Assembly (NCBI GenBank): GCA_030606805.1
Contig: JAUWFS010000002.1
Location: forward strand, 1 to 48,146
Length of the DNA: 48,146 nucleotides
Direction: 5' to 3'
Source of the DNA: Deltaproteobacteria bacterium
Lineage (GTDB): Bacteria > Desulfobacterota > Desulfobacteria > Desulfobacterales > ETH-SRB1
Positions within the stretch are counted from its first letter, which is position 1. Every line of letters starts with the position of its first letter. Below, piece by piece: positions 10,774 to 33,536 of the stretch. A program made the position numbers and the translations under genes. The notes beneath the pieces were generated by a model. The model was not told the DNA's origin, did not search any database, and saw nothing but the letters and a program-made list of their open reading frames with translations.

Positions 10774-11225
10774 TTCAACCCTGTTGTTGCCTTCGCAACC
10801 ATATCTTGAAACTCTATTTTTGTTAAGGCTACAAAACCATTAGGAGCCTGTCTTGAATGTCCATCCTCAAGAGCTTCTATATACGGCACTGAGTTTTGTA
10901 TATAATGAACTTTCCCGGCTGCCTTTATCGGGACGCTCGCCGCTATCCGACTTATTGATTTGCCACCTGAAGGGTCAATGCAATCAATATCCTGAATAAC
11001 CTGTGCACCTTCTGAATGAGCCCAATTCCCCCGTGCATGACCACCTACATATCCAGGAGGCGGTTTTGACTTCCAGTACTTTGCATCACCAACAGGAGTG
11101 CGTTCAACAAGACTTACCCCGATATCAAGACAAACCGTTCTGATTACTTTGTCTGCATTTGAGACAGCTTTCTGTGCAAATTTTTTGATGTCATCTGAAA
11201 AACTCATTAAACCCTCAAATTGCAA
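10770..11225 (-). CDS. HK97 gp10-like neck / tail-completion protein
   Basis: 151 aa. The segments ...VCLDIGVSLVERTPVGD...GGHARGNW... are typical of the HK97 gp10 family. Confidence 0.5.
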   Translation of the reverse strand: MQFEGLMSFSDDIKKFAQKAVSNADKVIRTVCLDIGVSLVERTPVGDAKYWKSKPPPGYVGGHARGNWAHSEGAQVIQDIDCIDPSGGKSISRIAASVPIKAAGKVHYIQNSVPYIEALEDGHSRQAPNGFVALTKIEFQDMVAKATTGLK

Positions 11226-20607: not shown

Positions 20608-21431
20608 GATATATTCTCCTTTCTTTCTTTCCATAGCTTTTTGGCGGCTGTCTTCATTTTTAATCTTGTCTCATCGGTATGCTTTCTGCCTAACCACGGT
20701 TTTCCATGTTTACTATTAGCGACCATTTTTGCAAGGGATTCCGGTGTATGTTTTCTTCCTAATCCAGCACGTCCAATTTTTTCTTTTGCTTCTGCGGTAT
20801 GGTGTTTTCCATACATAGCATGCTTTTTACCTGATTGTGAGGCACTCATCTTTGCACGGGTTTCATCTGAATGGGTTTTTCCTAAAAATGTGGGATGTTC
20901 CCGACGTGATTTATTTAATTTCTCTTGGTGTTCCGGTGTTCTACCCCTCTTGATAGCAGCGACACTTATTTTTACACGTGTTGATTCTGGAAGATGCTTT
21001 CCAAAAAGACGGTGTTTTTCTCCCTTCCCGGCAGCACTCAGATTTGCCCGATGTTCTAAACTTTTAGCTTTCCCGGTCATGGATACACTCATCTTGGCTC
21101 TCGTTTCTTTGGTTCGTATCACACCAAGACAACTATATGCCCTCCCGCAAATATTGTATTCTGATTTTTCATTAATATATATTTGCTCATGTTCTATCAG
21201 ACTTTCCGTACTGCATTGTTCAATGATCGTAGAGAAAAAGCAGGTCGCCCCATATTTATTCCATGCCCTTTGAAGTATTTGGCTATGATGCAATCCAGCT
21301 AATAGTTTTCTTTTGTGCATTTGAAGGCGCTTTCTTAGGTTAATAGACGACCCAACATAACGCTTGCCATTCACCGAATTTACGATTGCATAAATGCCTG
21401 GAGACTGAGGATATGTAGCTATATTTTCCAT
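20592..21431 (-). CDS. GIY-YIG homing endonuclease with NUMOD3 repeats
   Basis: Motifs are PGIYAIVN..GKRYVGSS..RKRLQMH, followed by at least 6 NUMOD3-like repeats (ETRAKMS.S..GK). It is inserted between terL and the portal gene. Confidence 0.85.
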   Translation of the reverse strand: MENIATYPQSPGIYAIVNSVNGKRYVGSSINLRKRLQMHKRKLLAGLHHSQILQRAWNKYGATCFFSTIIEQCSTESLIEHEQIYINEKSEYNICGRAYSCLGVIRTKETRAKMSVSMTGKAKSLEHRANLSAAGKGEKHRLFGKHLPESTRVKISVAAIKRGRTPEHQEKLNKSRREHPTFLGKTHSDETRAKMSASQSGKKHAMYGKHHTAEAKEKIGRAGLGRKHTPESLAKMVANSKHGKPWLGRKHTDETRLKMKTAAKKLWKERKENISCQAQ

Positions 21432-21437
21432 ATTTTT

Positions 21438-21466
21438 CTTATACTCTTTATCAGTCTATAAGTCAA
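21438..21466 (-). promoter_or_regulatory. Sigma70-like promoter placed for a leaderless GIY-YIG mRNA
   Basis: The minus strand reads TTGACT-17 nt-TATAAG-aaaaat-ATG. The -10 hexamer ends 6 nt before the ATG at 21431, and there is no Shine-Dalgarno. Confidence 0.4.
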
Positions 21467-21477
21467 TGAAATTATAC

Positions 21478-22698
21478 TTAAATACCAGTTATCTGCATTC
21501 GTGTCATTTTCTCTCTCATTGGAAACTCATAATGGACAAGATAACCCAAAGCATCAGGCAGATGATCAAGCCCCAAGCCCTTATCAGGCTGTGAAGTGTC
21601 GGCTTTATAAGTCAATCCATCAAGGCACTTTATAAGCTGTTTACAACGAGAATGAATAAGCAACCGTCTATCACCCTTTGCGTTTTTAAACAAGGCATTA
21701 ACTTCATTGTTTCGATCAACTACCAAAGGGGAACCAGGCGGAGCCAGCACCCTGAAACCATGAGCCGCAAGAATACTAAAATCAGTTTGCCCAACCGGAG
21801 AACTTGTTTTCCGTGCTTTCCCTGTAGGATCTGGATAAACTTGCACTTTGCGTTTAGGATATCGTATCTGTATAGCATCGGCCATTAATTCAGTATTTCC
21901 GTTTGGAATTATAATTTCATCAATTATATGTAACTGATTTGTTACTTTGACCCCTATCACAGCACTCATGGGATTTACGTTAAAATCCATTCCCACAAGT
22001 AACTCCGCTCCAGTATCTTCAAGGCCTCCTGAAACATTAAGCAACCGGTCAAATTCATAATAAACCCGTCCGGTTAAACTTGCAAAACTCGCTAAATACT
22101 CCTGCTTATACGTTCGTTCATCAAGATCATGCTTTGCAGCTTCTAACTCTTCCAAGGGAACAAAGCCACCATCCTTTGTTGTAAATTGCCATGCTTTCCA
22201 TCCTGGTTTGCTATCTGCCAAAATCCACAAATCATACAAGTGATTAAATCCGGCAGGCGTTCCGATAAAAAGGGCCGTACCAATTTTGTCAGAGAGGGAC
22301 GGTCTCAACACTTCAGTCCATACCTCCGCCGCCATATCAGCATATTCATCAAGAACTAAGGTGTTAAGTCCCACACCCCGGAGTGAATCATAATTGTCTG
22401 CACCACGAAGGGATATTGTAGAATTATTAAGAAGGGTCAAGGTTAAATCTGTTTCGTTTTTGTTTTTTATAGCTTCTTGAGGAACAAAACCCCGAAGCAT
22501 AGCCCAAGCAATCTGTTTCGCTTGCCTATAAGTCGGGGCCGTGTACCAACATATAAAATCCCGATTATGCCATGCAGCGAAGAGCAGCACCCACAAAGCA
22601 AGTACTGTTTTTCCGAATCTTCGCCCTGCTACCACAACCTTAAAACGGGCATCGTCAAAAAATATATTGTCCTGTGCTGCTGAAAGCTCAATCTCCAT
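21478..22698 (-). CDS. terL: Terminase large subunit
   Basis: 406 aa. It has a Walker A-like motif VVVAGRRFGKT, a Walker B LVLDEYA and a C-terminal nuclease-like half. It follows the small subunit gene with an overlap. Confidence 0.85.
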   Translation of the reverse strand: MEIELSAAQDNIFFDDARFKVVVAGRRFGKTVLALWVLLFAAWHNRDFICWYTAPTYRQAKQIAWAMLRGFVPQEAIKNKNETDLTLTLLNNSTISLRGADNYDSLRGVGLNTLVLDEYADMAAEVWTEVLRPSLSDKIGTALFIGTPAGFNHLYDLWILADSKPGWKAWQFTTKDGGFVPLEELEAAKHDLDERTYKQEYLASFASLTGRVYYEFDRLLNVSGGLEDTGAELLVGMDFNVNPMSAVIGVKVTNQLHIIDEIIIPNGNTELMADAIQIRYPKRKVQVYPDPTGKARKTSSPVGQTDFSILAAHGFRVLAPPGSPLVVDRNNEVNALFKNAKGDRRLLIHSRCKQLIKCLDGLTYKADTSQPDKGLGLDHLPDALGYLVHYEFPMREKMTRMQITGI

Positions 22699-23089
22699 GT
22701 CTTTTTATAACCATAGGCGGGAAGTTATTAAATTCAATCTTTGTTGGTTCGTTATAACCGTACATAGCGTTTAATTCTTTAGTCGCTGATATTTGATCAG
22801 AGCTTCTTTCGTCAAAATCCTTGGCAATATCACCCAAAATAACAACACTTTGTTCCCGTGTCCATAATTGCTTTTTTGCTAAATTATCCTTTAATTCCTT
22901 AAGCCTTGACTTCACCTTGACATTGTCGGCAAGATGAGAAGCGTTTTCCCAGACTGACTTTTTTTTCTTATTTTTTGTACTATATGCACTACGATAAGCA
23001 TCAGACTGAGACAGACCGTTTGCAATCCCTTGACAAAACTTTTCTTGCTTTGCTGTTAGTTTAACTTTAGCCTTTGATTTTGATACCAT
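22688..23089 (-). CDS. terS: Terminase small subunit
   Basis: 133 aa. The segment KLTAKQEKFCQGIANGLSQSDAYRSAYS... is typical of the Terminase_2-type small subunit N-terminus. It lies directly upstream of terL. Confidence 0.7.
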   Translation of the reverse strand: MVSKSKAKVKLTAKQEKFCQGIANGLSQSDAYRSAYSTKNKKKKSVWENASHLADNVKVKSRLKELKDNLAKKQLWTREQSVVILGDIAKDFDERSSDQISATKELNAMYGYNEPTKIEFNNFPPMVIKRHGD

Positions 23090-23095
23090 TTTTGC

Positions 23096-23124
23096 CCTAT
23101 ACCAAAATTCATAATAATTGTCAA
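23096..23124 (-). promoter_or_regulatory. Sigma70-like promoter placed for a leaderless terS (late operon) mRNA
   Basis: The minus strand reads TTGACA-17 nt-TATAGG-gcaaaa-ATG. The -10 hexamer ends 6 nt before the terS ATG at 23089, and there is no Shine-Dalgarno. Confidence 0.4.
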
Positions 23125-23911: not shown

Positions 23912-24240
23912 GCTAATTGACAGGTAGAAAAAAATGTATCTTGTATTATATCAATACTTTACTTAAAAAAATGCCAGGTAAAGAGTGCTAATTAGCAGGT
24001 AGAAAAAAATGTATCTTGTATTATATCAATACTTTACTTAAAAAGGACAGGTAAAAAGTATAGGTTGTATTCCCCTTATATTAAATACCCTATATATATA
24101 TATATATTTTATTTTTTATAATAAAGAAAGTAAGGGGCTTACCTGTCCTACCTGTCCTTTATATTAAAATCAGATACTTACACATATCTTACTTGGCCTT
24201 TACCTGGCTTTTACCTGGCCTTTACCTGGCCTTTTACCTA
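23912..24240. repeat. Iteron cluster with an AT-rich core, a putative replication origin
   Basis: There are two 58-bp direct repeats (23912..23969 and 23987..24044, 2 mismatches). CAGGTA occurs 4 times (23921, 23975, 23996, 24048). Across a (TA)8 / A+T-rich core (24091..24120), the inverse TACCTG occurs 5-6 times (24140, 24149, 24201, 24212, 24223 and a degenerate copy at 24235). The last three or four sit in TTTACCTGGCC units with 11-bp phasing. Confidence 0.55.
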
Positions 24241-24259
24241 TTTTTTGTCAATTTTCAAA

Positions 24260-26647
24260 TTATATTGCATCAACTTCTGACCCAAATCTACCTTGTGTAA
24301 ATTTTTTCCAGGGAATTTTAAGCCCAATTTTCTTCTCAAAAAACTTTCTACACGCCCTTTTGTCAGAAAAAACATAAAGACGTTTTTGCTTTTCACCAGA
24401 TATTGTTTTTCTTTTGTCAGGATTTACATCTGAAAATTCAACTAATTTTCTACCAAAAATTGCTGGGACAAGAGGACGTTTTTCTTTAATTACTTTATCA
24501 CAAAAATATATATAATCATTAAAAAGTTTTTCTCTTTGTATCCCTTCTTCGCCACCTAATGTCGAAAAATCACCAAGTAACTGTTCAAACCAAAATTTTT
24601 GAAATGATGTAAAATTATAAACCAATTGATTTAAAAGTCCTTCAGTCTTAGGCGCTTCTCGTAAGTTAAATTTTGTAATATCCAATGCTAATAAATCATA
24701 TAACATTGCAGATATGCCACCTTTTTTATACATTTGTTCATCAATTTTTTTAAAATAATTATGGTTTTGCATTTGAGTATCAGCAACATTTAGAACGAGA
24801 AATCTCCGCTCATATCTTCCTACAGACACAACCCAGTCATTATTTGATGCAATAATACAATTAATGTGGTTGGCCATTTTAATAGCATCTTTACCTTTTA
24901 GTTCAATCAAATGATGCTTTGATGTAATAAGAGATTTAAGAACACCCGCAATTGTTTTGTCCCCTGCAAAAAATGCCTCATCAAGATATAACAAAAGACA
25001 ATTTTTGAGATGCGAATTAAATCGACCGGTTGCTTGTGCCTGTTTTGTAACTAATTGATAATGATGACCAAATATTTCCCCAAAGATTTCAACGAAAACA
25101 CCTTTTCCAACTCCCCTTAACCCCTGCAAAACAATTGCTGTGCCAGGTTTTTCCCCGCCAGGATCTTGAACAATACGTGCCATCCATGCCATTAACCACT
25201 CATAATGAAGTAGGTTATCATTACAAATATTATGGAATAAGTGTTCTTTATATAAAGACCAGTCCCCATTGACGGGTTTATATGTCAAACCACGATATAA
25301 ATTATAAAATCTATCATCATTATTGTTTGGGTCAAAGACAATTCCTTGATATTCACGGCGTTTTGCTGAAGCCAACCAGGCATCTGCAATAGAAATTGTT
25401 TTAGACTGACCTTTTTTTCCATTATAATTCGGATTTGGTATTTTTTTATTGTAATACAATAATTTAAAATCATACAGAGATAAAAATTGAGGGTCTATAT
25501 AACCACTAATATCCACAATTTCGTATAAAATCCGCACTTTATTACCAAGAATTATAACAGCATGTTTTTTATTAAATTCATTAATTAAATCCTCACCGGC
25601 TTCTTCTGTGCCAGACTCATCAATTTTGACAAATTCAGCATTATTAATCATACTAATAATATCTTTATGTTTTCCATCCTTTAATAAATCATTGATATCA
25701 TGTTTGGCAGGTGTATCTTTCGGCCACTTAACGGTTTTAGTTTTTTCCCCAAGAATAATTGAAATTCTATCAAGTGCTTTTTGGCCTTCTTTGTCATTAT
25801 CTAAAAAACATATTATTTGAATATTATCATCGCGATATTTTCGTAAAGATTTGACCTTTTTGGTATAAATTGAACTACCGATTGCCAGACAACAAGCGGA
25901 CGGAAAACATTCCGCACAAGAAAAAGCATTAATAACAGATTCAAAAAGAATAATAATCTTTGCTTGTTTAATATTTTCTCCAATTTGAAAAAAACAACCC
26001 TCTTCGTTTTCTGAACCATATGTAAAAACTTTATCCTTTTTTTCGGTATCTGAATAAGACAAGCCGTCCACAGACAGCATTTGTATTGCCAGAACTTTTT
26101 TATCACCATCAAGTTCACAATACTGGCAGGCCACGGAAGACAACTCTTCCTGGTCTTTTAAATGATGTTTAACAAAACGTATTTTGTTGTTATTGTATGC
26201 TTTTAGAAATAGTTCCTTATTAATACCACGTCTTTTAGCAAGCCTGTAAATAGGATCAAGATTAGTATTTTTGTCATTAAGAATATTTTTCCACCTATCC
26301 TGCTGTGAATAAAGATTTTTTTTGGAAGGAATTTTTTCTTTTTTCTCTTGTGCTGGTTCCGGTTGAAGCTTTAAGGAAGGTTTCGGTTTATCATTAATAC
26401 CAAATTCATCGAATAATTCAGGCAGGGTTTTGTTATAAATCAGCCTATAAAGATCGATAACGTCCCCACCCTTGGGTCTGCAATGGCGGCACCAGAATTT
26501 TTGCTCATCTGTTTTATATACCAGTCTATCTGTGCCGCCGCATAAAGGACATGGTCCACATTCACTATTATCTGTCTCTCTTTTGAGCCCAGGTGCCATG
26601 TCAGGGATTGAAGGTAAAATTGCTTTTAAGGCTTCGATTCCATTCAT
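24260..26647 (-). CDS. Primase / SF3 helicase fusion (zinc finger + Toprim + D5-like P-loop NTPase)
   Basis: 795 aa. It has an N-terminal zinc finger CPLCGG...CRHC, a Toprim-like acidic motif FLDNDKEGQKA, a Walker A VLQGLRGVGKG and a Walker B LLYLDEA. Confidence 0.8.
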   Translation of the reverse strand: MNGIEALKAILPSIPDMAPGLKRETDNSECGPCPLCGGTDRLVYKTDEQKFWCRHCRPKGGDVIDLYRLIYNKTLPELFDEFGINDKPKPSLKLQPEPAQEKKEKIPSKKNLYSQQDRWKNILNDKNTNLDPIYRLAKRRGINKELFLKAYNNNKIRFVKHHLKDQEELSSVACQYCELDGDKKVLAIQMLSVDGLSYSDTEKKDKVFTYGSENEEGCFFQIGENIKQAKIIILFESVINAFSCAECFPSACCLAIGSSIYTKKVKSLRKYRDDNIQIICFLDNDKEGQKALDRISIILGEKTKTVKWPKDTPAKHDINDLLKDGKHKDIISMINNAEFVKIDESGTEEAGEDLINEFNKKHAVIILGNKVRILYEIVDISGYIDPQFLSLYDFKLLYYNKKIPNPNYNGKKGQSKTISIADAWLASAKRREYQGIVFDPNNNDDRFYNLYRGLTYKPVNGDWSLYKEHLFHNICNDNLLHYEWLMAWMARIVQDPGGEKPGTAIVLQGLRGVGKGVFVEIFGEIFGHHYQLVTKQAQATGRFNSHLKNCLLLYLDEAFFAGDKTIAGVLKSLITSKHHLIELKGKDAIKMANHINCIIASNNDWVVSVGRYERRFLVLNVADTQMQNHNYFKKIDEQMYKKGGISAMLYDLLALDITKFNLREAPKTEGLLNQLVYNFTSFQKFWFEQLLGDFSTLGGEEGIQREKLFNDYIYFCDKVIKEKRPLVPAIFGRKLVEFSDVNPDKRKTISGEKQKRLYVFSDKRACRKFFEKKIGLKIPWKKFTQGRFGSEVDAI

Positions 26648-26901
26648 GACTTCACTCCTTCTAATATATATTGCAGTTTTTCTTTTTGCCCCATTATTAA
26701 TATTTCTTCATTAAGATCAATTTTTTCCTTTCCAAAATTTTCTAAACCCATCCATATTACATCGCCTTCTTTGTCGGCCAAAATCATAAGCCTTTCGTCG
26801 GTATCAGTTTTTTTTGTATCTCCGTTTTTATGAAACATAATCCCTTTTTTTATAAGAATTTGATATTCTTTAAAGGGGTCCTGACAGGGTTTGATTCTCA
26901 T
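26644..26901 (-). CDS. Hypothetical protein (85 aa), translationally coupled to the primase
   Basis: It has a good Shine-Dalgarno (AAAGGAGAUUAUU-AUG) and an ATGA overlap with the primase start. I recognised no motif. Confidence 0.35.
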   Translation of the reverse strand: MRIKPCQDPFKEYQILIKKGIMFHKNGDTKKTDTDERLMILADKEGDVIWMGLENFGKEKIDLNEEILIMGQKEKLQYILEGVKS

Positions 26902-26942
26902 AATAATCTCCTTTCTATTTATAAATCATCTTAAAATAATAA

Positions 26943-27053
26943 CAGGGTATATAAGAGGAAGGTCATAGCTCCGCCGCCATATCCGGGAAATATGGTCTTA
27001 TATACCCTGTTTTGATTTTAAAATATTTTTGTTTTTGAGTTCTATGACAACTC
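26943..27053 (-). ncRNA. Structured leader RNA, copy A (kissing-loop leader family)
   Basis: On the minus strand, HP1 is GAGUU[GUCAUAG]AACUC (27053..27037). A 27-nt A/U linker follows. The compound hairpin (27009..26943) has a 14-bp basal stem CAGGGUAUAUAAGA/UCUUAUAUACCCUG that encloses CCAUAU-UUCCCGG-AUAUGG and GGAG[CUAUGAC]CUUC. The two bracketed loops are exact complements. Confidence 0.6.
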
Positions 27054-27103
27054 ATAGGATTTGATAAAAACTACCTTTCACACTTTCCATATTATATCCA
27101 ACT

Positions 27104-27571
27104 CTACCTGTCAAGATTATTCACATAATCATCATAATAGCGCCTCAATATCAAATATGTAACCTTTTCAGCCGATTGCCTGTCCCACATCGGCCATATA
27201 TGGATATTCTGTTTAATCGAAAATGAGATCAAACTTCTGAACACAGCCTTGCTTGACATGTGTGACCTACTTGGTGGATTTGTAAAAATTCCAGCCAAAG
27301 AGGTTTCAATAACTAAACCAGCATAATTAAATTCACTCATTCGTATAATTTCTTTTTTGAATCGATCTCTATTTTTACCCATACTGGAAAAAAGGTCATT
27401 CTTTTCTTTTCTTTCTATTACGATACGATCAACAAAACCATCCAAACTGTAATCGCCAGTACTTAAACCAATAATTTTTGTTTTAGGCTTTGGGTTAATA
27501 TTTTCAAAAGTATATTTTTTTTGTTCTCTACTATCAATTAGAATACAAAATTCTGGAATATTTGTTGTCAT
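27104..27571 (-). CDS. ERCC4 (XPF/Mus81/Hef-type) nuclease domain protein
   Basis: 155 aa. The motifs IDSREQK...GDYS....IVIERKEKNDLFSS match the ERCC4 nuclease signature GDY...ERK..DL. Confidence 0.6.
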   Translation of the reverse strand: MTTNIPEFCILIDSREQKKYTFENINPKPKTKIIGLSTGDYSLDGFVDRIVIERKEKNDLFSSMGKNRDRFKKEIIRMSEFNYAGLVIETSLAGIFTNPPSRSHMSSKAVFRSLISFSIKQNIHIWPMWDRQSAEKVTYLILRRYYDDYVNNLDR

Positions 27572-28254
27572 AATGATAATGAAGGTTGGAAATGTTTTTC
27601 AAGTTTTGCGCCTTTAGATATATTTTTTACAAGAGGTAATAATTGTAAGTTTTTTAAAGCCCAACAGCGCTGAAAATCAATATCAGTATATGACTTAAAA
27701 TTGTGAACAGAAATTGGAATAATGTGGTCAATACTTAAGTCAGTTTTACCATTGATATAATCTTTCCAAGTATAACCTTTTGGAATGGTTTTTTTAAGAC
27801 GTTTAATTAGTCCATCAATGGTATAAGGAACAAGACTTTCCCAATGCTTACCATTTTTACCTTTACTATTTTTTAATGATTTGCTCATACTGCTACGCAT
27901 AATATTGTTTAATTTATAATTTGGTTTTAGTTTTTGCTTGGCATTCTCTTTTCTACTTATTTCTTTTGTCTTTACCGGATTAGCTTTTCTGCAAGTTTTA
28001 TGATAAGCTTTTATTTTTTCTGAATTAGTTTTATAATAAGCTCTACAATTTTTTTTAAATATTTCTATATTATTTTTATAACGAGCTTTTCTTTTTTCTA
28101 TGCTATGTTTAGTATAAACTTTACTCTCAACAATTCTACATATTTTACACCTACATCGTATTCCAAAACAATTATCTTTTCTTTTATGAAATTCTTTAAA
28201 TGATTTTCTTTTACCACACACATTGCATACCCTTGTCAATTCAATCAATTTCAT
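27568..28254 (-). CDS. HNH homing endonuclease (paralog 1)
   Basis: I start it at the ATG at 28254 (MKLIELTRVCNVCGK..), because the track start at 28311 lies inside the structured leader. It has an N-terminal Cys cluster, Y..xN.EK repeats and the C-terminal HNH motif DLSIDHIIPISVHN...NLQLLPLVKNISKG. The last ~100 aa are about 75% identical to the ORF at 29735..30568. Its stop overlaps the ERCC4 start as ATGA. Confidence 0.75.
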   Translation of the reverse strand: MKLIELTRVCNVCGKRKSFKEFHKRKDNCFGIRCRCKICRIVESKVYTKHSIEKRKARYKNNIEIFKKNCRAYYKTNSEKIKAYHKTCRKANPVKTKEISRKENAKQKLKPNYKLNNIMRSSMSKSLKNSKGKNGKHWESLVPYTIDGLIKRLKKTIPKGYTWKDYINGKTDLSIDHIIPISVHNFKSYTDIDFQRCWALKNLQLLPLVKNISKGAKLEKHFQPSLSL

Positions 28255-28272
28255 ATTACACACCTTAAACGC

Positions 28273-28379
28273 AAAAATAGCCCAAGATAAAGGGTATGCA
28301 GCCCCAACCATATCGAGAATATGGCCTGCCTTGAGCTATTTTTATTTTTAAAGTTTTGATTGAGAACCCTGCATGATTC
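28273..28379 (-). ncRNA. Structured leader RNA, copy B (kissing-loop leader family)
   Basis: On the minus strand, HP1 is GAAUC[AUGCAG]GGUUC (28379..28364). A 20-nt linker follows. The compound hairpin (28343..28273) has a 14-bp basal stem AAAAAUAGCUCAAG/CUUGGGCUAUUUUU that encloses CCAUAU-UCUCG-AUAUGG and GGGG[CUGCAUA]CCCU. AUGCAG and CUGCAU are complementary. Confidence 0.6.
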
Positions 28380-28405
28380 ATTAGATTTGTTTATCTTTCA
28401 TATTT

Positions 28406-28434
28406 TTAATATTCCATTTTACTTTAATTGTCAA
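28406..28434 (-). promoter_or_regulatory. Sigma70-like promoter of HNH cassette B
   Basis: The minus strand reads TTGACA (28434..28429)-17 nt-TATTAA (28411..28406), in the gap after the helicase stop. Confidence 0.5.
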
Positions 28435-28436
28435 CA

Positions 28437-29738
28437 TTAAAGATTATCTAATATTTTATCCTGTATCTTTTGGGATAAAAAGGTGCATCTATTATATACT
28501 TTTGTATTTTTAACAACCTGTCGAATAAATGATTTTTGACCTACCGAAATTAGTATTTTTATTGCTCGTGAGACAGTTGTATAAAGCATAGCTTTATTAT
28601 AATGGAATGTAAAAGCTGAATGAACCGGAAATATTACTACAGGAAAGCCTGACCCTTGTGCCCGATGGGTCGTGATCGAATAGCTGAGTTTTAAATTATG
28701 ATTCCACTTATTAACTAAAACCCTTCGCTTAGGGCTCTCAAATTCCACTATCATTTGTTTATTATTACCCTGTAAATCAATTATTTTTCCTTGATCACCA
28801 TTCAAAACTATTTGTTTGTTCCCGCTGTCAACGTCAATACTGTCATACAAATTCTTACAATTAATTACACAACTGCCAAGTCTAAAACTTATAGTATTGC
28901 CATTATTGTTTTTAATAATATTTTCTTCAGGCTGCTGATTAACAATATTTTGAATTGATTTATTAAGGGCATCACAACTCAATATTGTTTTTGAATTAAC
29001 AGGAGATAGAACCTGCACATCACCATTATTAACTTCATACCCGCGCTTAACCATATTTTCAGTAGCAAGCTTGACAATCGTATCATGTATCACCTGCGGA
29101 ACACTGCATTCAATATGGATGTAATTGCTATTAGTCTTTAAATCGATCTTTCTGTCAGGTGATTCAGGTAACATATACCTTCGATCATCTGTCCGGATAG
29201 CAGTACACATTCTTACAATTTCGCCACTATTACGAAAAATATCTGTAAGTTCCGTGCAGGGTATGCATTTACAAGAGATAAGGTCATATAAAATGTTTCC
29301 GGGGCTTATCGAAGGCAATTGATTTGAGTCTCCGATTAATAATACTTTAGTTTTGTCATGGTCAATTGCTGATAATAAACTTGCGGCTAAATCATTCCCA
29401 ACCATTGACATCTCATCTATTGCCAAAAACGTACAATCTAATTTATTGTCAGCATTATAAGAAAATTGGAATTGTAATTTTCCATTAATTTTGGTTGGGA
29501 TGGGACGAAGCATCCGATGGATGGTACTTGCCGGGTGGCCTGTCATTTTACTGAGGACGCTTGCAGCTTTCCCACTGGGAGAACATAGTAATATTGAATG
29601 TCCTTCTGACTTCATATAATCAACTATGGTTTTTGTGATAGTCGTTTTGCCACAACCAGGACCACCGGTAAGGATAGATAACTTATTTTTTTTAACCATT
29701 TCCAATGCATCAAGCTGTTTGTTAGTGAGTTTTATCAT
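28437..29738 (-). CDS. RecD2/Dda-like SF1B helicase core (C-terminal part of a split RecD2-like gene)
   Basis: 433 aa. It has a Walker A ILTGGPGCGKTT, a Walker B FLAIDEMSMV, the motif LLIGDSNQLPS, and C-terminal ITTHRAQGSGFPVVIF...YTTVSRA (AAA_30 + UvrD_C_2 type). Confidence 0.85.
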   Translation of the reverse strand: MIKLTNKQLDALEMVKKNKLSILTGGPGCGKTTITKTIVDYMKSEGHSILLCSPSGKAASVLSKMTGHPASTIHRMLRPIPTKINGKLQFQFSYNADNKLDCTFLAIDEMSMVGNDLAASLLSAIDHDKTKVLLIGDSNQLPSISPGNILYDLISCKCIPCTELTDIFRNSGEIVRMCTAIRTDDRRYMLPESPDRKIDLKTNSNYIHIECSVPQVIHDTIVKLATENMVKRGYEVNNGDVQVLSPVNSKTILSCDALNKSIQNIVNQQPEENIIKNNNGNTISFRLGSCVINCKNLYDSIDVDSGNKQIVLNGDQGKIIDLQGNNKQMIVEFESPKRRVLVNKWNHNLKLSYSITTHRAQGSGFPVVIFPVHSAFTFHYNKAMLYTTVSRAIKILISVGQKSFIRQVVKNTKVYNRCTFLSQKIQDKILDNL

Positions 29739-30568
29739 AATAGTAGTGAAGGCTGAAAAGGTTTAATTAACTTAGCACCTTTTGACATATTTTTTAAAGC
29801 AGGCAATAGTTGAAGATTTTTTAAAGCCCAACATCGCTGAAAATCTGTGTCGGTATATGATTTGAAGTTATGAACTGCAATCAGAATTTTGTGATCAATT
29901 TGAAGATCGGTTTTACCATTAATATAATCATCCCACGTGTAGCCAGGCGGAAGTGTTTTCTTTAAATGTTTGATTAAATCGTCTAAGGTATAAGAAACAA
30001 GATTTTCCCAATGATAACCATTTTTACTATTTTTTAATGATTTACGAATAGAGTTTGACACAATTTGACTTAATTTAAATTTAGGGTTTATTCTACGCTT
30101 ATTCTTCATGTAAGCAGATATTTTTCCTTTATTTGCTTTATGATAAGCCTTTATCTTTTTCTTGTTTGCTTCACGATAAGCTTCTTGATATACGACTAAT
30201 TTTTCTTTATTGAATTCATAATAATTTTTATTATAAGTAGTTCTTTTTTCTTTATTTATTTCATAATAAGTCTTTTGATATACAACTAATTTTTCTTTGT
30301 TTGTTTTACGATAAATATCCATATAGGTGAATATTTTTTCTTTGTTTGTTTCACGATAAAACTTTTTACGAATAGCTATCTTTTTCTTGTTTGCTTCACG
30401 ATAAACCCTACCATGATCAACTATTTTTTTCTTATTTGATTTTTGATAAGCTTTTATTTTTTCCTTATTTTTTTTGTAGTAAACCTCTTTTTTGGTAGCT
30501 AATTTTTCTTTATTTACTTCTCGATATATCTTTTGATAAGCAGCTTCTTTTTCTTTTGTCCATGACAT
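29735..30568 (-). CDS. HNH homing endonuclease (paralog 2) with ~13 tandem 11-aa Y..xNKEKI repeats
   Basis: 277 aa. The repeats are (A/V)Y(Q/R)KxNKEKIxx. The C-terminus is DLQIDHKILIAVHN...NLQLLPALKNMSKG. Its stop overlaps the helicase start as ATGA. Confidence 0.75.
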   Translation of the reverse strand: MSWTKEKEAAYQKIYREVNKEKLATKKEVYYKKNKEKIKAYQKSNKKKIVDHGRVYREANKKKIAIRKKFYRETNKEKIFTYMDIYRKTNKEKLVVYQKTYYEINKEKRTTYNKNYYEFNKEKLVVYQEAYREANKKKIKAYHKANKGKISAYMKNKRRINPKFKLSQIVSNSIRKSLKNSKNGYHWENLVSYTLDDLIKHLKKTLPPGYTWDDYINGKTDLQIDHKILIAVHNFKSYTDTDFQRCWALKNLQLLPALKNMSKGAKLIKPFQPSLLL

Positions 30569-30591
30569 AATATTAACCCTTTAAAACAACA

Positions 30592-30702
30592 ATAGGATAT
30601 ACCAAAACGGAGGTCGCAGCTCCTAAACCACACGGGGAGTGAAGTTCTTTGATATACCCTATTCTAATTTTAAATTGATTTTTTTGAACTCTGCGACAGT
30701 TC
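30592..30702 (-). ncRNA. Structured leader RNA, copy C (kissing-loop leader family)
   Basis: On the minus strand, HP1 is GAACU[GUCGCAG]AGUUC (30702..30686). A 23-nt A/U linker follows. The compound hairpin (30662..30592) has a 16-bp basal stem AUAGGGUAUAUCAAAG/UUUUGGUAUAUCCUAU that encloses GGAG[CUGCGAC]CUCC. The two bracketed loops are exact complements. Confidence 0.6.
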
Positions 30703-30726
30703 ATAAGAATTTATCCTTTTCATTAT

Positions 30727-30755
30727 TTTATAATCATAATTGAAATATATGTCAA
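30727..30755 (-). promoter_or_regulatory. Sigma70-like promoter of HNH cassette C
   Basis: The minus strand reads TTGACA (30755..30750, overlapping the RecD-N stop)-17 nt-TATAAA (30732..30727). Confidence 0.5.
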
Positions 30756-31645
30756 GATAAAAATTTAACTATACAATTTGCAATTAAGGACTCATCTTTT
30801 GCAAATTGGGTGAGTGTTAAAAAATCGTTATCCTTAACTAAAATTTCTAACTCAACAAGTTGAATAAGTGCATTTAAAACATCAGCCAGCTTTATCCCAT
30901 TTATTAAACCCAAAATGTTTTTAGTAATTACACTTGATTTTAACCAAACATCTCCAGTATCACCCATTATTTGCTTTATAATATATATTATTCCAAACTT
31001 GATGCGCTCTGGATTATTTAATTTTATGCCACATTCTATCGCAATTTTATCCGCTGATAAAAATCCAATTCGGTTTATTTCAGTTAAAATATATGGTGTA
31101 TTTTTAACGATCTCGTAAGCGGTTAGGCCATACAGGGCCACCAAATTTTGGGATAAATTACGAGGCAAACCTTTGACTCTTGAGAACAACCCTTCTAATT
31201 TAATAAGCAATTCTTGCCGCTTGTCGCCTTCTTGTAGCTGTTCACTGATTTCAAGCGCAAGTTTGTATGATATCCCTTTATTTTCATTCGTAATACGCTC
31301 TGGCGCCTTCTTGAGGATCCGAATTGTATGCTTTCCGTATTTCTCAATCAGCATATCAGCCAAAACCGGCCCGATGCCATTAACATGCTTTTCAAGATAA
31401 ATAGCGATTGAATCAGCGGCAACTGGTTCTTTAACGCAATAACTATCAATTTTAAATTGCTTCCCGTATTTTGCGTGTTCCGTCCAATCACCTGACATTT
31501 CGTATGTAATGCCTGCGGCTGGATTGAATAAGTCGCCGGTTGCGATAAATTCAAGGCCGGTTTCAGGTTGGAAAGCAACTATGGTGAAGTCGTTTTCGAG
31601 GGACCGCCATATAACTTTTTTTAGCCTTGCTGTGATGTCAGGCAT
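30752..31645 (-). CDS. RecD2-like helicase N-terminal (helix-hairpin-helix) domain protein
   Basis: 297 aa. The segment ..FIATGDL....G..YEMSGDWTEHAKYGKQFKI......P.....IAIYLEKHVNGIGPVLADMLIEKYGKHTI.IL...PE.. matches the N-terminal OB/HHH region of RecD2 (YrrC-type) helicases. It ends where the AAA_30 domain would normally begin. Confidence 0.6.
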   Translation of the reverse strand: MPDITARLKKVIWRSLENDFTIVAFQPETGLEFIATGDLFNPAAGITYEMSGDWTEHAKYGKQFKIDSYCVKEPVAADSIAIYLEKHVNGIGPVLADMLIEKYGKHTIRILKKAPERITNENKGISYKLALEISEQLQEGDKRQELLIKLEGLFSRVKGLPRNLSQNLVALYGLTAYEIVKNTPYILTEINRIGFLSADKIAIECGIKLNNPERIKFGIIYIIKQIMGDTGDVWLKSSVITKNILGLINGIKLADVLNALIQLVELEILVKDNDFLTLTQFAKDESLIANCIVKFLS

Positions 31646-32134
31646 TCAATTTCCTTTTATAAAAGTCATCCAATGTGTTGTCTTTTTATGGTTTGTTGTA
31701 TGTCCAAACAATGGTTTTTCCGGTGTAAGAGCAAGAACTTTTGACAATTTAATATCAGTTTCATTCCATTTGAAAATAAGTATTCCGTTTGGTTTTAAAA
31801 CTCTAAAACATTCTTCAAATCCTCCGTGCAAATCTGATTCCCAATCAGGGAAAAGCCTTCCATACCTTTTTGCCATCCAAGCATTTTTGCCCAATGAATT
31901 CATATGTGGCGGATCAAAACAAACTAAATGAAAAGTGTTATCTTTAAATGGTAAAGCGACAAAATTACATATAATATTTGGTTTAATAACCCAAGGTTTT
32001 CTTCCAGGCAATGAAGATTCAAAGGTTTCCATTCTTTTATCTACATATAATACTAATGGATTGTTTTTAACAAACCACATTGCCTGTGTACCACAAGTTG
32101 CATCAAGTATCCTTGGCTTCATAACATCAAACAT
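31646..32134 (-). CDS. Small SAM-dependent methyltransferase (DPPH motif), possibly a DNA methyltransferase
   Basis: 162 aa. It has a motif I-like ILDATCG, a motif IV-like VCFDPPH, and LKPNGILIFKW. Confidence 0.45.
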   Translation of the reverse strand: MFDVMKPRILDATCGTQAMWFVKNNPLVLYVDKRMETFESSLPGRKPWVIKPNIICNFVALPFKDNTFHLVCFDPPHMNSLGKNAWMAKRYGRLFPDWESDLHGGFEECFRVLKPNGILIFKWNETDIKLSKVLALTPEKPLFGHTTNHKKTTHWMTFIKGN

Positions 32135-32865
32135 TCTATTTCCTCATCATAATTATCAACCTTAACTATCTTCCCGAATGATTCCCTCACATGCACAAGC
32201 GCCTTTCTATACCCCTTAAATTCAGGGTAGTATTTTTCATCAATCAACATTTTCTCATACAACCCAAGCTGCAACCCATATTTAACAACGTCACAATTTT
32301 TCAAATGTTCAATCGGTTCCAGCATATTCCCGAATGCACCTTCTTCATCAGTGATCTTATTATTAGTTTTCCAATCGATTATAATGCCTTGCTGCGCAGT
32401 ATCATCGGCCATTAATAAATCTATCTGACCGGCAATCTCCATGCTCGGAGAAAAGACAATTTGTTCAGCAGCAACCAATCTGAACCGCTCAAGCAACTTC
32501 GGAAATAATTTATTAACTTGTTTACCCATTCTCAATAATCTATATGTTTTTGGAAGCCAGCCCCAACATCCTTTGCCCGGCCATCGTTCACATAAGGCAT
32601 GTAATTCCGTCCCTTCCATTGATGATAGGGTTGCTTTTTCTTTCCATTGATATTGGATTTCATTAACAGATAAACCTACATACTTCGGTTTTTTCTTATC
32701 AACCATGCGTTGAGCCATTTTGAGAGCGTTAAAGGGGGGAGTGTAACTCTTAATAATAGTAGTTACAGAAGTAAGCAGATCACCCGTTTCTTTAATACGA
32801 TACGAATGATCTGCTTCCGTGAAGATGCAAGTTAAACCGTTATGAGTAGCTGTTTTATCCGGCAT
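32119..32865 (-). CDS. PD-(D/E)XK (RecB/Cas4-like) nuclease
   Basis: 248 aa with motifs GQIDLLM...IIDWKTN...LQLGLYEKM (D...D/ExK...QxxxY). Confidence 0.6.
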   Translation of the reverse strand: MPDKTATHNGLTCIFTEADHSYRIKETGDLLTSVTTIIKSYTPPFNALKMAQRMVDKKKPKYVGLSVNEIQYQWKEKATLSSMEGTELHALCERWPGKGCWGWLPKTYRLLRMGKQVNKLFPKLLERFRLVAAEQIVFSPSMEIAGQIDLLMADDTAQQGIIIDWKTNNKITDEEGAFGNMLEPIEHLKNCDVVKYGLQLGLYEKMLIDEKYYPEFKGYRKALVHVRESFGKIVKVDNYDEEIECLML

Positions 32866-33364
32866 GGTTATTACTATTTCTACGATTATTAGCTTGTACT
32901 TTTTTTGTAGCCCAAATACAATTTTCAGGTGAATAACCTTTTTCGTTGTTAACTCGTTCTAAAGTAAGTTCCGGCTTTGGTTTTAATCCCATATCTTCAA
33001 AAAAGTTTTCAAATTTTAACCAACGGTCACAGACTTTGATTCCCCGACCACCATAATATTTATAACCTGTATTGTTTATATTTAAACAACGTGCTTTCAT
33101 ATTTTGCCAAGTTGAATATTCAGAGGTGTGACACTTTCCATGAGTTGTAAAATTTTTTATAGTTGTTTCTCGGCGTAAACAACCACATGATTTTAAAAGT
33201 CCTCGGCGAAATCCCCTTTTTAATTCTTCTCCTTTTTTTATTAAATATTCACCACAACTACATCTCACCCACCAAAGTGATTGAGATTTTTTATCATTTC
33301 CGGCTTTTGCAATCACAGTTAATCTACCAAATTTTTGTCCTACTAATTGTAATGGTTTACTCAT
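32855..33364 (-). CDS. Conserved phage protein of unknown function (GRLTV ... YGGRGI motifs, Cys cluster)
   Basis: 169 aa. It has GQKFGRLTVI, CSCG...CGC, W.NMKARC and YYGGRGIKVCDRW. This motif set recurs in many phage genomes, but I cannot assign a function. Confidence 0.3.
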   Translation of the reverse strand: MSKPLQLVGQKFGRLTVIAKAGNDKKSQSLWWVRCSCGEYLIKKGEELKRGFRRGLLKSCGCLRRETTIKNFTTHGKCHTSEYSTWQNMKARCLNINNTGYKYYGGRGIKVCDRWLKFENFFEDMGLKPKPELTLERVNNEKGYSPENCIWATKKVQANNRRNSNNHAG

Positions 33365-33379
33365 TTTATATATACTCCT

Positions 33380-33454
33380 AAAAACAAAAAAACTTCCTGG
33401 AATATGGTCGGATACGACTCCGCTCTATCCTTACGGAATAGAGGTTCCAGGAAG
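33380..33454 (-). terminator. Terminator-like compound hairpin inside a 5' leader (leader D)
   Basis: On the minus strand, the 10-bp basal stem CUUCCUGGAA/UUCCAGGAAG (33454..33393) encloses two small hairpins (CUCUAUUCC-GUAA-GGAUAGAG and GUCG-UAUC-CGAC). It is followed by UUUUUUUGUUUUU, then the Shine-Dalgarno AGGAG and the ATG at 33364. Confidence 0.5.
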
Positions 33455-33507
33455 CTTTTCTATCTTGCAAGCTTAATTTATATTTCGTATTGTTTACCAT
33501 GTTTTTT

Positions 33508-33536
33508 TATATATATAAAACAATTTAAAAAGTCAA
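33508..33536 (-). promoter_or_regulatory. Sigma70-like promoter upstream of leader D
   Basis: The minus strand reads TTGACT (33536..33531)-17 nt-TATATA (33513..33508), starting right after the stop of the upstream ORF. Confidence 0.45.

Follow-up and report, generated by a model that had tools for sequence, protein, structure and literature searches.

The 48,146-nucleotide (nt) stretch analysed here, hereafter the window, covers positions 1 to 48,146 of contig JAUWFS010000002.1 (assembly GCA_030606805.1, Deltaproteobacteria bacterium) and includes a phage replication module in which all genes lie on the minus strand. Genes of this module, among them one for a 277-amino-acid (aa) HNH-like protein, are preceded by copies of a structured leader RNA, in which two hairpins carry mutually complementary loops and a start codon at the foot of the first hairpin opens a reading frame that runs through the fold. 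An earlier note, made from the sequence alone, had described one of these leaders (copy C below) as a promoter followed by two hairpins and an HNH gene, together with two further copies (A and B). Its reading of copy C on the minus strand proved accurate for the promoter TTGACA-17-TATAAA, with the reservation that the -10 hexamer lacks the canonical final T, and for hairpin 1 (HP1), the 16-bp basal stem with G-U pairs, the inner hairpin GGAG[CUGCGAC]CUCC, the U-rich tract and the ATG. Equally accurate were the two 7-nt loops of copy C (L1 and L2), which are exact reverse complements, and the loop pairs AUGCAG/CUGCAU of copy B and GUCAUAG/CUAUGAC of copy A. All three copies stand, but a fourth, divergent one (copy D) had been missed.

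The elements of the four copies, all on the minus strand, are as follows (ORF, open reading frame; SD, Shine-Dalgarno sequence).

Copy C
30566-30755 (-): whole element, read from the sequence
30750-30755 (-): -35-like hexamer TTGACA, which holds the TGA stop (30752-30754) of the helicase N-terminal-domain gene
30727-30732 (-): -10-like hexamer TATAAA, 17 nt after the -35 hexamer
30573-30704 (-): leader ORF, 43 codons and TAA, AUG at 30702-30704, passing through HP1 and the whole Y helix
30685-30703 (-): HP1, UGAACU[GUCGCAG]AGUUCA, stem 30698-30703 with 30685-30690, L1 GUCGCAG at 30691-30697
30580-30674 (-): Y-shaped helix with a three-way junction, from folding and covariation
30667-30674 with 30580-30587 (-): outer stem of the Y helix
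30648-30663 with 30591-30606 (-): basal stem, 16 bp with G-U pairs
30625-30647 (-): arm a, the second inner hairpin
30609-30623 (-): arm b, GGAG[CUGCGAC]CUCC, L2 CUGCGAC at 30613-30619
30577-30582 (-): SD-like AAAGGG, serving the 277-aa HNH-like ORF
30566-30568 (-): downstream ATG, start of the 277-aa HNH-like ORF (29735-30568)

Copy B
28252-28434 (-): whole module, TTGACA at 28429-28434
28265-28381 (-): leader ORF, 38 codons
28364-28379 (-): HP1, L1 AUGCAG at 28369-28374
28262-28354 (-): Y helix, L2 CUGCAU at 28296-28301
28252-28254 (-): downstream ATG, start of a 228-aa HNH/endonuclease-VII-like ORF

Copy A
26899-27114 (-): whole module, TTGACA at 27109-27114
26963-27055 (-): leader ORF, only 30 codons, UGA inside L2
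27036-27054 (-): HP1, L1 GUCAUAG at 27042-27048
26927-27025 (-): Y helix, L2 CUAUGAC at 26962-26968
26899-26901 (-): downstream ATG, start of an 85-aa ORF that precedes the primase gene and has its own unpaired SD, AAAGGAG

Copy D
33362-33536 (-): divergent fourth copy, covariance-model score 25.7 bits, E about 0.01
33531-33536 (-): TTGACT, followed at 17 nt by TATATA, promoter-like site
33378-33500 (-): leader ORF, 40 codons, AUG 7 nt past the -10 hexamer
33377-33471 (-): Y helix, z = -6.1, arm-b loop GUCGUA at 33413-33418

In copy D the complement of the arm-b loop is only 5 nt long (UACGA, 33485-33489) and no clear HP1 is seen; its leader stop codon UAG sits within the SD (UAGGAG) of a clear HNH gene at 32855-33364. 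Because its leader AUG follows the -10 hexamer at 7 nt, the transcript of copy D may be leaderless.

Conservation of the fold and of the loop-loop pairing

The minimum-free-energy folds of copies A, B and C share a single architecture, with z from -3.9 to -4.2 against shuffled sequences. The long hairpin, described earlier as compound, is present, but in these folds it is a three-way junction of a basal helix and two arms, with arm a besides arm b. Likewise, the stretch taken for a 23-nt A/U linker exists, but its conserved UUUAAAA pairs with the U-rich tract to form the outer stem, so that the linker left unpaired is A-rich and only 9-15 nt long. The whole helix, whose 3' strand is the U-rich tract and leads directly into the downstream SD, comprises about 27-30 bp, is rich in A:U pairs and branches into arms a and b.

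Taken alone, a match between two loops is unremarkable, because a loose descriptor of the arrangement, run over the 48 kb, returns 18 raw matches on one strand and 31 on the other, overlapping variants counted and mostly with A/T-rich 6-mers. The pairing owes its significance to homologous elements rather than to single matches. Relatives were recovered by a protein search with the adjacent helicase N-terminal-domain gene, which gave 75 of them at 55-89% identity from metagenomes, and their contigs were searched for the element with the descriptor, nhmmer and a covariance model. In all, the window and 11 related metagenomic phage contigs yielded 19 distinct elements on the sense strand. For the comparison of loops over 6-7 pairs these were anchored in register in Python, as MAFFT mis-registers the loops at gaps. 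Six consecutive positions of the HP1 loop and the arm-b loop form Watson-Crick pairs in all 19 elements, which between them use 10 loop sequences; covariation is seen at five of the six positions, and at one position all four types of pair occur. Non-cognate combinations of loops reach a mean of 3.3 pairs out of six and never all six, and the loops of different copies in the same genome are mutually non-complementary. The computed energy of the kissing duplex ranges from -7 to -10.5 kcal/mol. Loss of L1/L2 complementarity in relatives, which the earlier note had named as evidence against the structure, is thus not seen in any of the 19 elements.

The nested helices, together with only the four unambiguous kissing pairs, were also assessed by counting pairs in the alignment: 92.7% of the cells are paired, versus 39-53% when the partners are slid by 1-3 columns, and although the alignment had been fitted to the covariance model, which biases it toward the structure, the gap to the slid controls is still large. 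Compensatory changes on both sides occur in 37 of 48 tested pairs, and none of 500 shuffles reaches the observed values. The HP1 stem, too, covaries across the elements, so that the compensatory covariation of loops and HP1 stems first noticed among the three copies holds in the larger set. With the covariance model the sense strand scores 86-130 bits and the antisense strand 20-55 bits, which points to the sense RNA as the folded molecule. On this evidence the RNA structure is essentially certain.

At its 3' side the helix looks like a branched intrinsic terminator. After the last G/C pair there is a U-rich tail with 5-10 U per 12 nt in 19/19 elements (for instance GCGC|UUUUUGUAUUUUU and AGCC|UUUUUUGCGUUU), and the A-tract on the 5' side pairs with it. 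The outermost stem pairs take in the first two purines of the downstream SD, and these pairs covary (columns 42-43 with 144-145). Among unpaired positions two motifs are conserved, CAAAUCUUAUGA upstream of HP1 and AAUCAA in the linker; the junction nucleotides are few and not conserved. An antisense promoter at a conserved position was not found, the promoter-like sites on the opposite strand varying in place, and no conserved internal promoter was found on the sense strand of the elements.

The earlier inability to place the layout in a known RNA family is upheld by Rfam 15, which gives no match at gathering score across the whole window, and at E-values up to 10 in 26500-31000 only four chance-level matches (two snoRNA models, one miRNA model and one sRNA model), none of them at the element cores. 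The exclusion of a group I intron and of HEARO/omega RNA likewise holds, with no matches to either. A group I intron with a homing-endonuclease ORF was rejected, as there is no Intron_gpI match and a 3' intron half is missing, the next gene starting before the nuclease ORF ends. The HEARO or IscB omega RNA was rejected on the lack of a Rfam match and on the downstream proteins, which are of 169-277 aa, HNH or endonuclease-VII-like, and without a RuvC match.

A reading frame threaded through the leader

The leader is more than a non-coding RNA, in that the invariant ATG at the 5' foot of HP1 opens a frame of 38-49 codons (114-147 nt) in most elements. This frame passes through HP1 and the linker, then along the two strands of the Y helix and through its two arms, to end at the ribosome-binding site of the downstream gene. 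In copy C the U and G of this start codon are themselves part of the HP1 stem, and the stop lies 4 nt upstream of the downstream ATG. Between the ATG and the last U of the U-rich tract the leader frame is open in 18 of the 19 elements, as against one and seven for the other two frames; summed over 18 elements, it contains two stop codons and the others 58 and 28. Shuffles that preserve every helix, the orientation of pairs and the composition of loops leave the frame open in a mean of 3.0 of the 19 elements, with a maximum of nine in 2000 trials. Owing to insertions and deletions, homologous columns occur in 12 codon-phase patterns, and the subfamilies have unrelated peptides. As the frame stays open in spite of this, the conserved property is its openness, not a protein.

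The leader stop usually lies close to the downstream start or overlaps it. In the 13 elements in which the script assigned a main start (copy A excluded; none was assigned in six), the stop falls between 20 nt inside the downstream gene and 13 nt upstream of its start (-20 to +13 nt). It often lies within the conserved UUUUAAGG, which is also the SD, as in UUU-UAA-GGAGG. Three variants fit a translated leader. In the relative L053 (11354-12115) the HNH-like gene has AUA where its relatives have AUG, in frame with the leader ORF, and the whole is called as a single 252-aa gene from the leader ATG. In L022a, at the site of copy C, the -10 hexamer and the 5' leader are lost and the UGA of the upstream gene lies 6 nt before the leader AUG. 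In copy A the sequence of L2 creates an in-frame UGA, so that the leader ORF stops early, and an extra unpaired SD (AAAGGAG) is present 20 nt beyond the helix; no other copy has such a downstream SD. Considered together, these features make translation of the leader ORF moderately secure.

The leader peptides have a basic N-terminus and a hydrophobic C-terminal half, the latter bias arising because the 3' strand is U/G-rich. A gene for a small protein was rejected, since phases and peptides differ between subfamilies. Programmed -1 frameshifting at the conserved UUUAAAA was rejected as well: the heptamer is in phase in some copies only, and the -1 frame has no link to the downstream gene.

The promoter-like site and the 5' leader

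A perfect TTGACA lies upstream of 14 of 18 elements and is followed at 17 nt by a hexamer of the TATAAA, TATTAA or TATATA type, so that the promoter looks sigma-70-like. A promoter scanner leaves these sites unlisted because the final T of the -10 consensus is missing. The promoter is not obligatory, given the L022 orthologue of copy C, which is without the -10 hexamer and the 5' leader. A similar promoter format recurs at other intergenic sites of the window (23124, 21466 and 37408). At 23089-23124 (-) TTGACA-17-TATAGG is followed after 6 nt by the ATG of the ORF 22688-23089, and at 21431-21466 (-) TTGACT-17-TATAAG has an ATG at the same distance; this phage may commonly use leaderless mRNAs.

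The conserved 5' leader reads GAAAGGUAAaCAAAUCUUAUGA. In about 12 of the 19 elements a start codon (AUG or GUG) 4-7 nt past the -10 hexamer opens a mini-ORF of 6-10 codons with a MKDKQIL-like product, found in the window at 30705-30725, 28382-28401 and 27056-27081 (all minus strand) and also in L022, L023, L030, L034, L052, L053 and L057. Its stop and the leader AUG overlap in the form AUGA or UAAUG, and its differences in length are multiples of three. The start is AUA in L027, L028 and L054, which makes the mini-ORF optional, and the frame differs in copy C and L035. It may constitute a third tier of translational coupling.

Downstream genes and distribution

The local replication module includes a PD-(D/E)XK nuclease gene (-) and the following genes.

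30752-31645 (-): helicase N-terminal-domain gene, OB and HHH part
28437-29738 (-): helicase core (ATPase)
27104-27571 (-): ERCC4 nuclease
24260-26901 (-): small ORF and primase

The identification of an HNH gene downstream of copy C is sound, as its product has the D-H...N...N motif. This 277-aa ORF has a paralogue in the 228-aa ORF after copy B, with 59% identity across about 190 residues and the same HNH-type motif; the PHROG family that the 228-aa ORF matches is annotated as endonuclease VII. In the N-terminal half of the 277-aa protein (29735-30568), residues ~10-160 consist of K/Y-rich repeats of about 14 residues (YxKxNKEKIxxY...), shorter in the paralogue after copy B, which may represent a DNA-binding repeat array.

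The RecD2-like helicase is encoded by two genes in all 75 relatives, irrespective of an insertion between them, and the N-terminal gene specifies about 297 aa. In relatives without the insertion the two genes abut or overlap by a few bases, so that copy C with the 277-aa ORF is an intergenic insertion that did not bring about the split. Division of the helicase gene by an intron, intein or cassette was rejected on the same grounds, the two-gene state being ancestral in the 75 relatives.

The element is not tied to HNH genes alone; the site at which it is best conserved is the gap in front of the primase operon. Among the relatives it stands there in L049, L052a, L022c and L054, and upstream of HNH/endonuclease-VII-like genes in L034a, a clear case, and in L052b, L022a and L053, with weak matches. 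Near-identical "type B" leaders occur at 28257-28384 of the window and in L034 (9401-9528), L049 (8414-8541) and L052 (9706-9833), at different positions of the module and before different genes (HNH phrog_374; small ORF and primase; endonuclease-VII-like). That they precede different genes from phage to phage suggests movement or recombination of the module as a single unit, with recombination at the leader.

The known distribution is narrow, being confined to one clade of uncultivated phages from aquatic metagenomes, two contigs of which were binned into Desulfobacteraceae and Deltaproteobacteria genome assemblies. Within this phage group L056 and L026 have no element, and none was found at L001-L021, the loci with distant homologues of the 277-aa nuclease. 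A megablast search of 26000-32000 against GenBank phages gave no match, and the best protein relatives among GenBank phages are about 34% identical. An exact-sequence search with the helicase N-terminal protein of the window returned no record. Exact-pattern scans of viral contigs with the conserved element sequence returned only a known contig or chance matches that the covariance model rejected.

A proposed translation-gated leader and its closest parallels

We propose that the element is a portable 5' expression module, in which a sigma-70-like promoter is joined to a translated, structured leader that gates the downstream gene by its own translation; we would give this proposal an even chance of being right. 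The analysis shows the fold with its paired loops, a frame kept open and the geometry of stop and start, and from these we infer that ribosomes translate the leader ORF and that the downstream gene relies on this for its expression. The attenuator or translational control of the nuclease cassette suggested earlier pointed in the right direction, but the translated frame through the leader, which had gone unseen, changes the likely mechanism. The folded leader would be the OFF state, with the terminator-like helix formed, the downstream SD partly masked and the leader AUG held in HP1. A ribosome loading at the leader AUG would unzip the fold and thereby prevent termination, free the SD, or both. 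As it would stop no more than ~13 nt before the start codon, or overlapping it, the ribosome could be handed over by termination-reinitiation. Once arm b has been made, the kissing contact would dock HP1 onto the Y helix and lock out late ribosomes, such that output of nuclease and primase would be limited to ribosomes loading co-transcriptionally. The lock is speculative; it is favoured by the position of the leader AUG in the HP1 stem and by the compatibility of the contact with the closed fold.

The nearest parallel lies in the control of rep genes in IncI1/IncB plasmids, which involves a leader peptide and a pseudoknot (PMC8053102). In these I-complex plasmids (IncB pMU720 repBA; IncI-alpha ColIb-P9 repYZ), as in the phage element, an upstream hairpin has a loop whose complement lies further downstream, and a short leader ORF ends at or beside the main start; in the plasmids its translation is obligatory and hands over by reinitiation (PMC8053102). 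In the plasmids, however, the distal partner lies beside the SD, buried in an inhibitory stem, and an antisense RNA competes for the hairpin loop, whereas the phage partner is exposed, in a loop of the three-way junction that lies 35-45 nt from the SD, and there is no evident antisense RNA. Moreover, the phage leader AUG lies inside the kissing hairpin and its 38-49 codon ORF spans the whole fold.

In Escherichia coli pyrBI a rho-independent terminator lies within the ~135-bp gene for a leader peptide, and a closely following ribosome suppresses it (PMC4824070). The phage leader ORFs, of 114-147 nt, similarly enclose a terminator-like helix with a U-tract, but the hairpin is branched and engaged in a tertiary kissing contact, its role as a terminator is putative, and there is no sign of nucleotide-sensitive pausing. 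Hairpins that sequester the ribosome-binding site restrict translation of homing-endonuclease genes in T-even phages (I-TevI, I-TevII, I-TevIII, segB and mobE; PMC2988022) and illustrate why the translation of such genes is held in check. The phage systems share a homing-type nuclease gene preceded by a stable RNA structure at its ribosome-binding site. The T-even structures, however, are simple hairpins that are bypassed by a late promoter within the hairpin (PMC2988022), as opposed to the upstream promoter, translated leader ORF, three-way junction and covarying kissing loops of the present element, which serves the primase operon too.

A broader analogy is offered by the hok/sok-type mRNAs and the leader of the MS2 maturation gene, in which translation is confined to nascent or processed RNA, the mRNA being inert once its fold is complete; hok, too, has a leader ORF (mok) that overlaps it. 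The phage element has no sequence or structural homology to these, no antisense partner and no toxic peptide, and a kinetic window is in its case a hypothesis.

Weighing the proposal against its alternatives

Several points weigh against the proposal of a translation-gated leader. The 19 elements represent only about 4-5 subfamilies, so that counts over them are not independent. Part of the openness of the leader frame is explained by strand composition, as witnessed by the seven elements with frame 2 open too, and the leader AUG has a weak SD, GAAAGG, which in most copies stands 12-13 nt before it. Masking of the downstream SD may be weak as well, with only its first two bases paired, and a simple terminator scanner reports no terminator in 26500-31500, the hairpin being branched. 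Copy D keeps the ORF and the Y helix without a clear HP1. As for the contact, the kissing loops fit the closed fold and the sequence gives no sign of whether they repress or activate; furthermore, a linker of 9-15 nt would allow the contact only if arm b folded back against the basal helix or the outer stem opened.

This last point bears on an alternative in which the pseudoknot is activating, as in the IncB/IncI-alpha type: leader translation would open the helix, and the pairing between the HP1 loop and arm b would form or persist and keep the downstream ribosome-binding site accessible, the contact thus being needed for expression. The parts correspond to those found in the plasmids, with an upstream hairpin whose loop has its complement further downstream and a leader ORF terminating at the main start, and the short linker may not reach arm b while the 27-30 bp helix is closed, which would make the contact and the SD-masking outer stem mutually exclusive. 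We nevertheless consider this alternative unlikely, in view of the exposed position of the distal partner, 35-45 nt upstream of the SD and not buried beside it, and of the lack of an evident antisense regulator, promoter-like sites on the opposite strand not being at conserved positions. Unlikely, too, is an element acting at the RNA level without translation, be it a branched intrinsic terminator, a stabiliser of the 3' end of the upstream gene or an RNase III-type processing site, with the open frame a by-product of the A-rich 5' and U-rich 3' strands. The long double-stranded stretch, the U-rich tract after the helix in all copies and the location directly downstream of the stop codons of upstream genes agree with such a role, as do the 7/19 elements with frame 2 open and the roughly 3/19 left open by composition-preserving shuffles. 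It does not account for 18/19 elements being open in the exact frame of the invariant AUG across 12 phase patterns, for the placement of the stop at the downstream start or for the in-frame fusion of the leader ORF to the downstream gene in L053, and a promoter upstream of a plain terminator makes little sense.

The remaining alternatives appear considerably less probable. A ligand- or protein-responsive RNA (riboswitch-like or operator) or a self-cleaving ribozyme, with the kissing loop building a pocket or an active site, is suggested by the compact three-way junction with its tertiary loop-loop contact and by the conserved unpaired CAAAUCUUAUGA and AAUCAA; the few, unconserved junction nucleotides, the lack of a Rfam family up to an E-value of 10 and the absence of a common metabolic theme among the downstream genes make it very improbable. 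Hardly better is a function at the level of DNA or in trans, namely a structure formed by single-stranded DNA where replication or recombination takes place, close to the genes for helicase and primase, or a small RNA kissing between molecules. The elements do lie in the replication module, loop complementarity is strand-symmetric, and the near-identical type B elements before different genes in different phages suggest recombination at the element. The G-U pairs, however, set the sense score (86-130 bits) well apart from the antisense score (20-55 bits); promoter, AUG, stop and SD are all framed on the sense strand; and the loops of copies in one genome do not complement each other. Finally, the conserved open frame and the hydrophobic C-terminal halves could be read as a real small-protein gene (38-49 aa, with a basic N-terminus and a hydrophobic C-terminus) that is regulated by the RNA structure. 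We give this almost no credence, given that homologous nucleotides stand in different phases, that the peptides are unrelated between subfamilies and that the hydrophobic bias follows automatically from the U/G-rich 3' strand.

Significance

No description of such an element was found in the collection of papers searched. Its regulatory logic, combining a leader ORF, a masking helix and long-range loop pairing, is already known from plasmids and from E. coli pyrBI. New are the three-way-junction terminator-like helix wholly within a leader ORF, the start codon inside the kissing hairpin, the distinct loop "code" of each paralogue and the tie to free-standing nuclease cassettes in phage. It is possible, though we put it forward with more doubt than conviction, that the elements represent a new phage cis-regulatory class, in which a leader ORF is threaded through a three-way-junction terminator locked by kissing loops: the contact would gate ribosome entry, the ribosome would gate read-through and reinitiation, each paralogue would have its own orthogonal loop code, and the whole would travel with free-standing homing-endonuclease genes as a self-contained cassette for low-leak expression.

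The leaders provide a natural case of a structured RNA and a reading frame under joint constraint, in which the loops covary and the frame stays open while the peptide drifts. They also suggest a phage route to tight, ribosome-dependent control of potentially harmful homing nucleases and of primase. The module is only about 190 nt long and, were the lock real, the existing loop pairs would be a ready set of orthogonal parts. It is also conceivable that the repeated module is a recombination handle that shuffles nuclease genes between sites and phages.

Other observations in the region

The G+C content of 24000-32000 is 0.31-0.33, versus 0.37-0.45 elsewhere in the window, and this stretch coincides with the replication module and the inserted nuclease cassettes. 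When compared with the 89%-identical L022 (6651-8001), the window has extra genes between conserved neighbours at 31646-32134 (-) and 32855-33364 (-). The latter is the HNH cassette of copy D; the former, a short DNA-methyltransferase-like ORF, has a match to no more than positions 50-202 of the 229 in its PHROG profile. In L022 itself the gap after the helicase core (10913-11050) holds no leader element and is occupied by a small Cys-rich ORF with a zinc-ribbon-like CxxC...CxxC pattern.

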